The notes below the pieces were generated by a model, which had not been told where the DNA came from, ran no database searches, and saw only the letters and a program-made list of their open reading frames with translations. A stretch of 64,000 nt of DNA from Escherichia coli. Its GTDB lineage: Bacteria > Pseudomonadota > Gammaproteobacteria > Enterobacterales > Enterobacteriaceae. Positions 39,994-42,100 of this stretch are shown piece by piece. How positions within the stretch are numbered: position 1 is the stretch's first letter; each line of letters opens with the position of its first letter. The stretch lies in the NCBI RefSeq assembly GCF_051903065.1, contig NZ_CP178438.1. One strand, given 5' to 3'. Made by a program: the position numbers and the translations under genes.

Positions 39994-41812
39994 GCTTAAG
40001 GCGTTGATCACCGGTGTCGACAGGCTTTCTCCCGCGCTGTCGAAAATGCAAAAGAAAATCCGGGGATTTAAACGCCAGGCGGAAGAAGCGTCACAGGGTG
40101 GGCTGGCGCTTGGTGGCGGACTGGCAGCGGGTCTGACGCTTTCCCTGAAATCTTATGCCGATCAGGAAAACGCCGCCACCGGGCTGAAAGTCGCCATGAT
40201 GGATGCGAACGGCGAGGTTGGAAAGAGCTTTCAGGACATCAATAAACTGGCTATTGGCCTGGGTAATCAGCTACCCGGTACAACGGCTGATTTCCAGAAC
40301 ATGATGCAGATGCTGGTGCGTCAGGGGATCCCGGCAGAAAACATTCTTGGCGGTGTGGGTAAAGCGACAGCTTATCTTGCGGTACAACTGAAAAAAACAC
40401 CGGAAGCGGCTGCCGAGTTTGCCGCAAAGATGCAGGATGCTACCGGAACGGCGTCAGAAGACATGATGGGGCTGTTCGACACTATCCAGAAGGCGTTTTA
40501 TCTGGGCGTTGACGATACCAACATGTTGTCCTTCTTCACTAAAACCAGCTCTGTTCTGAAGATGGTGAACAAGGACGGTCTTCAGGCTGCACAGAGCCTT
40601 GCCCCCATCAGCGTCATGATGGATCAGATGGGGATGAACGGGGAGTCGGCAGGTAACGCCCTGCGAAAAGTTATCCAGTCCGGATTAAGCGTTAAGAAAA
40701 TCAGGGACGTCAATAAAATCATGGCCCGCCAGAAACTCGGGGTACAGCTCGATTTTACTGACGGCAAAGGGAGTTTTGGCGGTCTTGATAACATGTTCAG
40801 GCAACTGGCAAAGCTGCGAAAACTGACCGACGTTAAGCGAACAGGCGTACTTAAGGCAATATTTGGTGATGATGCCGAAACCCTTCAGGTGGTCAATGCA
40901 CTAATCGATAAAGGAAAGGATGGCTACGATCAGATCCAGCAGAAGATGAATAAACAGGCCAGCCTGAATAAACGTGTTCAGGCTCAGCTTGGTACGCTGT
41001 CCAACCTGTGGGAGGCAATGACGGGGACCGCAACTAACGGTCTTGCAGCTATTGGCGGCGCATTTTCTGGTGACGCCAAAAATATCACGCAGTGGCTGGG
41101 GGAGTTGGGGGAGAAATTCACGAAGTTTGCGGATGAAAATCCCCGGGTTATTCGCGGCGTCGTCGGGCTTGCTGCCGGTCTTGCGATTCTGAAACTGGGA
41201 TTGATGGGCGTGGGCAGTGCCATCAGTATTGTCAGCAGGATTATGTCGATGACGCCGATTGGCATGATTGCGACGGCGATTGCTCTGGCTGCGGGATTAA
41301 TTATCACTAACTGGGATGTTGTCGGACCTTATTTTAAGAAGCTCTGGGAAACCATTGGTCCTTATTTTGAGGCTGGCTGGGAACTTCTGAAGAAGGTTTT
41401 TGCCTGGTCGCCGCTGGGGATGGTGATCAATAACTGGGGACCGGTTGTTAAGTGGTTTCAGGATATGTGGGATAAGCTGAAGCCAATTATTGAGTGGTTT
41501 ACCGACAGTTCCGGTGACACGGTCGATGCCATTAACTCTGCGCAGTGGGGCGCGGGTGCTTATGATGCTTATGGGACGGGAATACCGGCGCGGGGATACA
41601 CACCTTATCCGGCGGTAGATCTGGCTCAGTCAAACAACGCCTCCGATGCCACAGGCCCGAATCCCTTCATGATTAACAAAGCTTCTGCGCCAAAAGTTGA
41701 TGGTGAGATCAAGGTATCATTTATAAATATGCCACCAGGTATGCGGGTTACGGAAACACGCTCCAGTGGCATTGATATAAATCACGATGTTGGCTATACC
41801 CGATTTTGGTAG
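39980..41812 (+). CDS. tail tape measure protein
   Basis: 610 aa, Gly/Ala-rich, C-terminal hydrophobic segments. Confidence 0.85.
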   Translation: MAEFELKALITGVDRLSPALSKMQKKIRGFKRQAEEASQGGLALGGGLAAGLTLSLKSYADQENAATGLKVAMMDANGEVGKSFQDINKLAIGLGNQLPGTTADFQNMMQMLVRQGIPAENILGGVGKATAYLAVQLKKTPEAAAEFAAKMQDATGTASEDMMGLFDTIQKAFYLGVDDTNMLSFFTKTSSVLKMVNKDGLQAAQSLAPISVMMDQMGMNGESAGNALRKVIQSGLSVKKIRDVNKIMARQKLGVQLDFTDGKGSFGGLDNMFRQLAKLRKLTDVKRTGVLKAIFGDDAETLQVVNALIDKGKDGYDQIQQKMNKQASLNKRVQAQLGTLSNLWEAMTGTATNGLAAIGGAFSGDAKNITQWLGELGEKFTKFADENPRVIRGVVGLAAGLAILKLGLMGVGSAISIVSRIMSMTPIGMIATAIALAAGLIITNWDVVGPYFKKLWETIGPYFEAGWELLKKVFAWSPLGMVINNWGPVVKWFQDMWDKLKPIIEWFTDSSGDTVDAINSAQWGAGAYDAYGTGIPARGYTPYPAVDLAQSNNASDATGPNPFMINKASAPKVDGEIKVSFINMPPGMRVTETRSSGIDINHDVGYTRFW

Positions 41813-42045
41813 CAGAGAAAGTTAGCCTGGATAATTTAAGTGTTATTGAAGAGTCTAAACTAGAGCTCGTTTCTGCGGTGCGTTACTCTGCTCAGTATGT
41901 TCCTATGTTTACTCTGACGCTGGACAAAAAAGAAATTACCATGCCTAAAAATACGGTAATATTTCCATTTGCCAGCGATGAAACAGCTAAGTATTTAAAT
42001 GAACAACAGCAAAAGTATAAAGATTCGTTGTTTCTGACTCGCTAA
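41806..42045 (+). CDS. small AT-rich hypothetical protein within tail cluster
   Basis: 79 aa ORF followed by an intrinsic terminator. Confidence 0.4.
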   Translation: MVAEKVSLDNLSVIEESKLELVSAVRYSAQYVPMFTLTLDKKEITMPKNTVIFPFASDETAKYLNEQQQKYKDSLFLTR

Positions 42046-42065
42046 TTAATAAAATTCATTACAAG

Positions 42066-42092
42066 GCCACCTTCTAATAGGTGGCTTTTTTA
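42066..42092 (+). terminator. intrinsic terminator
   Basis: GCCACCT-loop-AGGTGGC hairpin followed by TTTTTT. Confidence 0.7.
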
Positions 42093-42100
42093 TTTTCGGA

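Follow-up and report, generated by a model that had tools for sequence, protein, structure and literature searches.

The locus between the tape-measure and DNA-circulation genes

The window analysed here, 64,000 nucleotides of Escherichia coli DNA (contig NZ_CP178438.1), contains a 79-codon open reading frame (ORF; 41806-42045, plus strand, TTG start in the ORF list) carried by an SfV-like prophage. It is preceded by the tail tape-measure gene (39980-41812, plus strand, 610 aa), which is recognised from the ORF list, from the name 'phage tail tape measure protein' that RefSeq gives it in a genome of 99.99% identity and from PF10145 on homologous loci. It is followed by the DNA-circulation (Mu gpN-like) baseplate gene (42107-43435, plus strand), assigned from the ORF list, the RefSeq annotation of the 99.99% identical genome and the SfV and SfII annotations; this gene shares 67% identity with a Leclercia-type homologue that contains PF07157. 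The ribosome-binding site GGAG (42098-42101) and the ATG (42107) of the DNA-circulation gene fall within 42098-42109 on the plus strand. The same prophage also encodes a Q-family antiterminator (24152-24502, plus strand; an ORF in the window, annotated by RefSeq in a near-identical genome), whose gene precedes those for lysis, head and tail.

As the earlier note had described, the ORF between the two tail genes is AT-rich: GC content is 0.36 over 41813-42107, compared to 0.50-0.60 (about 0.55) in the flanking tail genes. RefSeq lists the product as a 'hypothetical protein' (WP_226156899.1), and between 41813 and 42100 there is no other ORF of 20 or more amino acids on either strand. The terminator described after the ORF could also be confirmed. 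An intrinsic-terminator-like element (42063-42096, plus strand) consists of a 10-pair stem (42063-42072 paired with 42079-42088), a 6-nt loop and then T6-A-T4 (42086-42096). The hairpin (42063-42088) has a folding energy of -15.6 kcal/mol with z scores of -4.1 and -4.55 (0 of 200 shuffled sequences fold as well), and with five G-C pairs among the ten it has the sequence properties of an intrinsic terminator, which makes it a putative terminator.

The signals at the 5' end of the ORF are of a different kind. The TTG overlaps the stop codon of the tape-measure gene by 7 nt and arises by chance from its last codons TTT TGG TAG, and the frame is open only because these codons happen to provide an in-frame TTG. 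When the sequence was read directly, no Shine-Dalgarno-like sequence was present upstream of the TTG, and in frame no ATG occurs before codon 34, which is one. The promoter-like match TTGGTA-18-GATAAT (41806-41835, plus strand, 9/12) is at chance level, with 11 such matches in 15 kb against 10.6 expected, and since it is located inside the ORF it could not drive it.

Truncation of a 176-aa gene

Aligned with the full-length allele of E. coli SCU-118, the window has a 389-bp gap, with 100% identity to either side of it. The deletion junction lies at 41813-41814 (no strand assigned), where base 41813 corresponds to position 1614 and base 41814 to position 2004 of the full-length allele (L003); here the first base downstream of the tape-measure stop codon is followed directly by the third base of codon 100 of a 176-aa gene. 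No microhomology or repeats were found at the junction in the sequences and the alignment. The 79-codon ORF (41806-42045, plus strand) is therefore composed of three junction-derived codons, TTG-GTA-GCA, and codons 101-176 of this gene of the phrog_5485 family, of which it retains the 3' 43%. The 76 homologous residues (window codons 4-79, residues 101-176 of the WP_000679479.1 family) are identical, and identity over all 79 residues is 97%. What the window lacks relative to phrog_5485 and WP_000679479.1 are codons 1-100, from the ATG onward and including the N-terminal transmembrane helix, and ahead of them the ribosome-binding site and the upstream region that contains the sole promoter-like site.

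Among 5426 complete E. coli genomes, 174 have the full-length gene at the same junction, whereas a junction-specific search detected the deletion in 2, a clonal pair from a single study; exact matches to the 79-aa product are present on 6 contigs and those to the 176-aa product on at least 1000. An assembly artefact is unlikely, as the window and two independent complete assemblies share exactly the same junction. Comparison across genera identifies the 176-aa long form as ancestral and the 79-aa form as derived, because prophages of Leclercia, Lelliottia and others have homologues of 173-179 aa with 34-58% identity at this site; the opposite course, in which the long form would have originated by a 389-bp insertion, was rejected on account of these full-length homologues in other genera. 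Elsewhere, too, the 176-aa gene decays repeatedly, through frameshifts, fusions and in-frame deletions.

The 176-aa gene is a real gene under purifying selection (dN/dS = 0.08 between two diverged copies). Its insert has a GC content of 0.34 compared to about 0.55 in the flanks, and its product matches phrog_5485 with an E value of 4e-108, a family annotated as function unknown which comprises about 79 clusters of nearly constant length (about 166-203 aa). A single N-terminal transmembrane segment is predicted at residues 5-23 by hydropathy (KD19 2.1) and as a helix at residues 3-23 in the AlphaFold2 model (pLDDT 89.4), in which a domain of a beta-sheet and two helices follows the membrane helix. 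Of 52 aligned family members, 51 have the hydrophobic N-terminal segment; the exception is P0085. According to the model, the window keeps the final beta-hairpin and helix of the protein and has lost the first sub-domain, so the 79-aa form has no transmembrane segment and an incomplete family architecture.

We therefore consider the 79-aa ORF to be a dead remnant, that is, a 5'-truncated pseudogene or decayed moron, of an optional prophage accessory gene, with a probability of roughly 85%. The remnant would not be made in useful amounts, and any product would be a functionless cytoplasmic half-domain. This amounts to a correction, as a RefSeq 'hypothetical protein' CDS which resembles a neat moron would in fact be a truncated pseudogene.

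Among the other explanations, the one that survives best assumes that the remnant is translated by coupling to translation of the tape-measure gene and that the soluble half-domain retains a function or has acquired one, for instance as a dimer or in a complex with the partner of the ancestral protein. All 76 retained codons are open, the TTG is located 7 nt before the end of the tape-measure stop codon, and the compact unit of beta-hairpin and helix is confidently modelled within the full-length protein. Some 79-aa product may indeed arise during lytic growth through weak termination-reinitiation at the overlap of TTG and stop codon. However, there is no Shine-Dalgarno sequence, the membrane anchor conserved in nearly all aligned members and half of the sheet are gone, selection is not evident in the single clonal pair of complete genomes, and many other random decay products of the 176-aa gene exist. 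We thus regard a functional coupled product as improbable.

Still less probable is the proposal of the earlier note that the ORF is an intact, autonomously expressed moron with promoter, 79-aa gene and terminator, which benefits the lysogen or acts in anti-defence. The AT-rich insert, the strong terminator, the absence from SfV, SfII and SfI and the CDS annotation by RefSeq are all compatible with it, and in two respects the locus does behave like a moron, in that an extra gene is found between genes adjacent in relatives and its base composition deviates. An optional AT-rich insertion was thus correctly recognised, but the gene has decayed. There is no promoter of its own and, with codons 1-100 absent, no intact gene that could be expressed from a repressed prophage: the ORF is a 3' fragment of the 176-aa gene whose upstream region, promoter-like site, ribosome-binding site, ATG and membrane anchor have been deleted, the sole remaining promoter-like match is at chance level and inside the ORF, and the allele is a rare one. 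Even for the full-length allele, the promoter-like sequence TTGTAA-16-(TG)TAGAAT (L003 1642-1669, within the deleted 389 bp; 9/12) is not above chance, and upstream of the Leclercia homologue there is no consensus promoter match, so that expression of the ancestral gene on its own is only putative. Promoter scans were at chance level throughout, and we do not claim an active promoter from them.

Anti-defence activity in particular finds no counterpart in scans of the 79-aa and 176-aa proteins against Pfam, NCBIfam and PADLOC, which yielded no matches. The profile search suggested by the earlier note thus returned nothing from these three collections; the full-length protein matches phrog_5485.

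A recurrent slot for cargo genes

Comparison of related tail clusters, also suggested by the earlier note, revealed that the insert is optional. SfV, SfII and APEC O2-211 have an empty junction of 45-60 bp, as do 532 complete E. coli genomes, and SfI likewise has no insert there. In 79 genomes it contains a minus-strand gene for a membrane-anchored OB-fold protein, and in about 55 a gene for a 225-aa lipoprotein. The five states (532 empty, 174 full-length, 2 deleted, 79 OB-fold, 55 lipoprotein) add up to 842, compared to 862 genomes among the 5426 complete E. coli genomes in which both flanks are recognisable, assuming that no genome was counted twice. The tail module is present in about one in five complete E. 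coli genomes and represents a widespread prophage module of E. coli and Shigella. On the basis of these sequence comparisons, the junction is a recurrent slot in which at least three unrelated, putative envelope proteins are exchanged.

The terminator, by the same kind of comparison, belongs to the architecture of this junction and cannot be assigned to the insert. The hairpin of the window is identical or near-identical in carriers of the full-length gene, and different hairpins with a T-run occupy the same position in empty junctions and in those with other cargo. All plus-strand and empty versions examined have their own hairpin and T-run just before the ribosome-binding site of the DNA-circulation gene, and the GGAG/ATG segment, which is conserved in most junction variants, starts a few bases past the T-run. 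The SfII record KC736978 annotates a 'putative rho-independent terminator' (11928-11966) between the tape-measure and DNA-circulation genes. It resembles the element of the window in its position relative to the ribosome-binding site, in a GC stem around CCAC...GTGG, in a T6 run and in the distance of about 6 nt to GGAG, but it differs in stem and loop sequences and has no cargo gene ahead of it. Because empty junctions also have a hairpin and T-run, the terminator is no evidence of insertion, and what had seemed to be an insertion mark is a standing feature of the junction.

An internal terminator would be tolerated in this late operon, as the prophage encodes a Q-family antiterminator. Lambda-type late operons are read by Q-modified RNA polymerase, which in lambdoid phages can pass internal terminators (PMC3851460). 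During lytic growth Q-modified RNA polymerase would, we infer, read through the terminator of the present prophage. In the lysogen, the terminator would insulate the baseplate genes from transcription originating upstream.

These observations also bear on the possibility that the 79-aa or the full-length gene encodes a tail protein with a structural or assembly role. Both share the strand of the tail genes, and the family adjoins the tape-measure gene down to 34% identity. On the other hand, SfV, SfII and SfI, which are plaque-forming phages, have nothing inserted at the junction, nor do 532 complete genomes; elsewhere the gene is replaced by unrelated cargo, in some cases on the opposite strand, its N-terminal membrane anchor points to the cell envelope, and remote family members are found outside phage tail clusters. 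A universally present structural homologue, which according to the earlier note would have spoken against a moron, was not seen, the gene being absent from most related modules, and a role in the tail is highly unlikely. Equally unlikely is that the region acts mainly as an RNA (leader, attenuator or small RNA) with an incidental ORF, since the Rfam Phe and Thr leader models match 41991-42094, which includes the strongly structured hairpin, only below threshold (27.8 and 21, about half of the gathering threshold of 55 in each case), a generic terminator hairpin explains these scores, and the sequence matches, at 100% identity, the 3' coding end of a gene on which purifying selection acts.

Possible function of the ancestral protein

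Targeting to the envelope is predicted for the ancestral protein and for each alternative cargo, which fits exclusion or surface functions better than the anti-defence role considered in the earlier note. The 176-aa protein would then act in the envelope and, like HK97 gp15, be a factor of the superinfection-exclusion type, matched to the tape-measure protein encoded next to it. Judged from its topology, its position and this analogy, an exclusion-type role is the most likely one.

The HK97 gene 15 moron encodes the superinfection-exclusion protein gp15 (Juhala et al. 2000; Cumby et al. 2012; reviewed in PMC3594210), a small exclusion protein anchored in the inner membrane whose effect depends on the tail region of the incoming phage (PMC3594210). 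The gene is optional, is located in the tail operon beside the tape-measure gene, has a lower GC content and is followed by a terminator (PMC3594210). Gene 15 and the ancestral 176-aa gene are thus alike in position, composition, a putative terminator downstream and predicted membrane anchoring. In contrast, the two proteins show no relationship in sequence or fold, and the 176-aa protein has no Pfam match, including YebO-type families. Moreover, gene 15 precedes the tape-measure gene whereas the 176-aa gene follows it, HK97 has a siphovirus tail and the prophage studied here a Mu/SfV-type myovirus tail, and the 176-aa protein is about three times larger than gp15, with a folded extracytoplasmic domain according to the model. 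The copy in the window differs further from gp15 in being truncated and without anchor.

In the searches made, no homology of the 176-aa family to known exclusion proteins was found. Pfam scans of 52 family members gave scattered single weak matches only, and tblastn of the 176-aa protein against INPHARED phage records gave no match, although PHROGs contains the family. A PDB profile search returned nothing below an E value of 0.3, and the fold of the family is predicted to be novel, without a solved relative. The best match in BFVD, a Pseudomonas phage 'lipoprotein' (E value 1e-4, TM-score 0.40/0.48), was too weak to be used.

We tentatively propose a more specific scenario, which is possible rather than probable. 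The tape-measure/DNA-circulation junction might be a dedicated, terminator-bounded slot for envelope proteins, and its oldest tenant a previously undescribed family of superinfection-exclusion proteins (about 175 aa, anchored by a transmembrane segment), linked to this site by recognising the cognate tape-measure protein or tail tip at the time of DNA injection. If so, the allele in the window would be a natural loss-of-function variant. The proteins encoded in the slot are testable candidates for phage-exclusion or surface-modifying functions, with the rare deletion allele as a natural negative control.

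A truncated gene in the tail module

The ORF of 79 codons at 41806-42045 (plus strand, TTG start) lies between the tape-measure gene (39980-41812) and the Mu-N-like DNA-circulation gene (42107-43435). Both neighbours were assigned from SfV/SfII annotations, from Pfam matches on homologous loci (PF10145 and PF07157, respectively) and from the RefSeq record of a genome that matches about 50 kb of the window at 99.99% identity, E. coli 23CRST027. The 295 bases from the tape-measure stop to the next gene have a GC content of 0.36, compared with 0.50-0.60 in the flanking tail genes, which confirms the earlier note's description of a small low-GC ORF at this position; no second ORF of at least 20 aa is present on either strand at 41813-42100.

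Among 5426 complete E. coli genomes, exact matches to this region were mostly 890 bp long, not 501 bp. In strain SCU-118 (locus L003) the junction contains a 531-nt gene with a 176-aa product (WP_000679479.1), and its alignment with the window shows one 389-bp gap in the window with identity on either side. Window position 41813, the first base past the tape-measure stop, corresponds to 1614 of L003, and 41814 to 2004, where codon 100 has its third base. The window thus lacks a 91-bp upstream region, a weak ribosome-binding site, the ATG and codons 1-100; no microhomology was found at the deletion junction. What is left are three junction-derived codons followed by codons 101-176, a frame that is open only because the end of the tape-measure gene provides an in-frame TTG; remnant and tape-measure gene share 7 nt there, stop codon included (TTT TGG TAG).

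The long form is the ancestral one and the short form derived, because full-length homologues of 173-179 aa hold the same site in other prophages: those in Leclercia, Lelliottia and metagenomic prophages show 52-58% identity, and those in more distant SfV-like tail clusters 38% and 34%. The window's deletion junction occurs in two of the 5426 genomes, 23CRST027 and 23CRST031, which stem from the same Ecuadorian study; six contigs carry exactly the 79-aa sequence, and at least 1000 exactly that of 176 aa. Many further broken versions of the long gene exist in the protein collection (A-run frameshifts, fusions, in-frame deletions); its decay is recurrent.

Since nothing remains in the window to drive it, we regard the remnant as a pseudogene, with a probability of roughly 0.85. 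It is improbable that the remnant is translated by coupling, with its function kept or a new one gained, as it has no Shine-Dalgarno-like sequence upstream of its TTG in the window, no membrane anchor and only half a fold, and is confined to a single clonal lineage. An intact moron expressed autonomously, as envisaged in the earlier note, is very improbable: the 5' half is absent, and the sole promoter-like site (TG-extended TTGTAA-16-TAGAAT, in the 91-bp upstream region), the ribosome-binding site and the ATG were all lost with the 389 bp. Presence/absence and base composition do fit a moron, while the promoter and an intact gene are missing from the window; the terminator can be read either way. 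A structural tail gene is scarcely credible, as the gene is missing from SfV, SfII, SfI and most related prophages, and an RNA element equally so, with sub-threshold Rfam matches only, at a generic hairpin.

The window feature therefore behaves as a decayed moron, a known kind of element; this instance and its cargo slot were not found in a limited literature search. The slot and the uncharacterised 176-aa family merit modest attention, the window copy less so.

The junction as a cargo slot with a conserved predicted terminator

Junctions in complete E. coli genomes were surveyed with 400 bp of each flank as query, followed by junction-specific or cargo-specific queries. The junction was empty (45-60 bp intergenic) in 532 genomes, held the full-length 176-aa gene in 174 and the version with the window's deletion in 2, a minus-strand gene for an OB-fold protein (PF12869) with an N-terminal transmembrane helix in 79, and a gene for a 225-aa lipoprotein (LLGGC lipobox) in about 55. 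These five states total 842, assuming no double counting, versus 862 genomes with both flanks recognisable. The junction is thus a cargo slot, and its three cargo types are all predicted to be envelope-targeted. With SfV, SfII, SfI and 532 genomes empty, a universal structural component is excluded. In E. coli 2013C-4282 (NZ_CP027579.1, 1836372-1836738, without annotation) the lipoprotein cargo is reduced to its 3' 45%; here, it seems, another cargo of the same slot was truncated at its 5' end in parallel.

A predicted terminator does lie 3' of the ORF, as the earlier note reported: a hairpin of 10 pairs with a 6-nt loop (42063-42088), followed by T6-A-T4, has a predicted energy of -15.6 kcal/mol (z -4.1 and -4.55), and none of 200 dinucleotide shuffles was as stable. 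It need not mark this particular insertion, however, because the empty state and all plus-strand states have a GC hairpin and a T5-8 run ending a few bases 5' of the conserved DNA-circulation ribosome-binding site (usually GGAG) and ATG. The hairpins read GTCCCAC-TCCG-GTGGGAT in SfII and empty junctions, GGCCACC-...-GGTGGC in the window, CCCGC-TTCG-GCGG with the lipoprotein cargo and, among others, CCCGCC-AACC-GGCGGG in Leclercia types; the SfII record carries a 'putative rho-independent terminator' at the junction. With the minus-strand OB-fold cargo, the hairpin instead directly follows the tape-measure stop. Every distinct sequence downstream of the 176-aa family gene in IMG/VR loci has such a terminator; the DNA-circulation gene follows in 76 of 80 of these loci, after 58-71 nt in all but one. 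The junction would therefore seem to have a functional terminator of its own, conserved from one state to the next.

The exception, L063 (IMG/VR UViG_3300045988_159823), has a gap of 773 nt, with about 700 added bases between the cargo terminator T-run and the DNA-circulation gene that open with a second GC hairpin, CCCCCAGC...GCTGGGGGG. Two small genes are added between cargo and DNA-circulation genes in another tail cluster (L099, 5637-6330), and two genes (503 and 94 aa, without Pfam match) between DNA-circulation and baseplate-hub genes in Leclercia-type tail clusters (L010, 8013-9808).

The ancestral protein and its possible role

The 176-aa protein belongs to phrog_5485 ('unknown function'); Pfam, NCBIfam and PADLOC gave no match. 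Searching 1.84 billion representatives with a profile yielded 79 clusters, nearly all of 166-203 aa and matching end to end. The dN/dS of 0.08 between two diverged copies marks it as a real protein under purifying selection; the remnant is a fragment of the family and no working member. Hydropathy indicates a single N-terminal transmembrane segment (residues 5-23), and no lipobox was found. The AlphaFold2 model (52-sequence alignment; pLDDT 89.4, pTM 0.74) has helices at 3-23, 74-93 and 149-171 and strands at 32-36, 39-44, 46-58, 67-72, 114-126 and 132-143, so that the remnant would encode just the final hairpin and final helix, its anchor missing.

In the window, a Q-family antiterminator gene (24152-24502) lies upstream of the lysis, head and tail genes, and regulation of the prophage is lambdoid. 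Q-modified polymerase reads past terminators in lambdoid late transcription, so an internal terminator would leave the late operon unbroken. In a lysogen, it would halt transcripts started upstream before they reach the baseplate genes, which in full-length carriers would mean those arising at the promoter of the cargo gene itself. Lambdoid late transcription has also been summarised for the relative SfIV (PMC3851460).

We tentatively consider that the ancestral protein might act in the envelope in a superinfection-exclusion-type role against incoming SfV-like tails, a possibility suggested by several points: it is predicted to be anchored N-in/C-out, it is present in some prophages only, it shares the slot with other envelope cargos, and its linkage to the tape-measure gene is lasting. 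There is also the precedent of HK97 gp15, encoded by a moron in a tail operon, for which exclusion hinges on the tail region (PMC3594210). The phrog_5485 fragment itself has no homology to gp15, nor has the feature any to known exclusion or defence proteins. Relatives of the 176-aa family below about 30% identity occur away from tail clusters, a pattern akin to that of gp15/YebO in HK97 (PMC3594210). One remote member (P0088; L096, 89-1061) of this family of about 175 aa, outside any tail cluster, adjoins a Rap1a-domain gene (type VI secretion immunity, PF18602).

Other features of the prophage

The window has its large terminase gene (30518-32250) in two ORFs, 30518-31225 and 31225-32250, because a G-run near 31203 is one base shorter than in 23CRST027, whose terminase gene is intact. 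The missing G is either a genuine inactivating frameshift or an error in sequencing the homopolymer. In 23CRST027, an Rz-like gene is marked as truncated by RefSeq, and both may represent other damage to the prophage.

A 1.9-kb tail-fibre segment (47392-49312) is an invertible host-range switch in its other orientation, as it is inverted relative to 23CRST027 and adjoins a pin-type site-specific recombinase and opposed tail-fibre/assembly gene pairs. Just past the tail end, a 611-codon ORF (51471-53306), followed by an IS1 copy, has a counterpart in the near-identical genome that is annotated as reverse transcriptase/endonuclease of the retron Ec67 family; no msr/msd RNA passed the Rfam gathering thresholds. 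Q antiterminator and holin genes are separated by two minus-strand genes (24527-26730), one for a protein of 395 aa whose C-terminal helices are hydrophobic and one for an annotated 'nucleoid-associated protein'. The two, which may be a defence pair, form a further cargo island at a classic moron site, that between Q and lysis genes. The tRNA beside proA (12904-12976; tRNA-Thr according to the near-identical genome), directly followed by the prophage integrase, is the attachment site of the SfV-like prophage.
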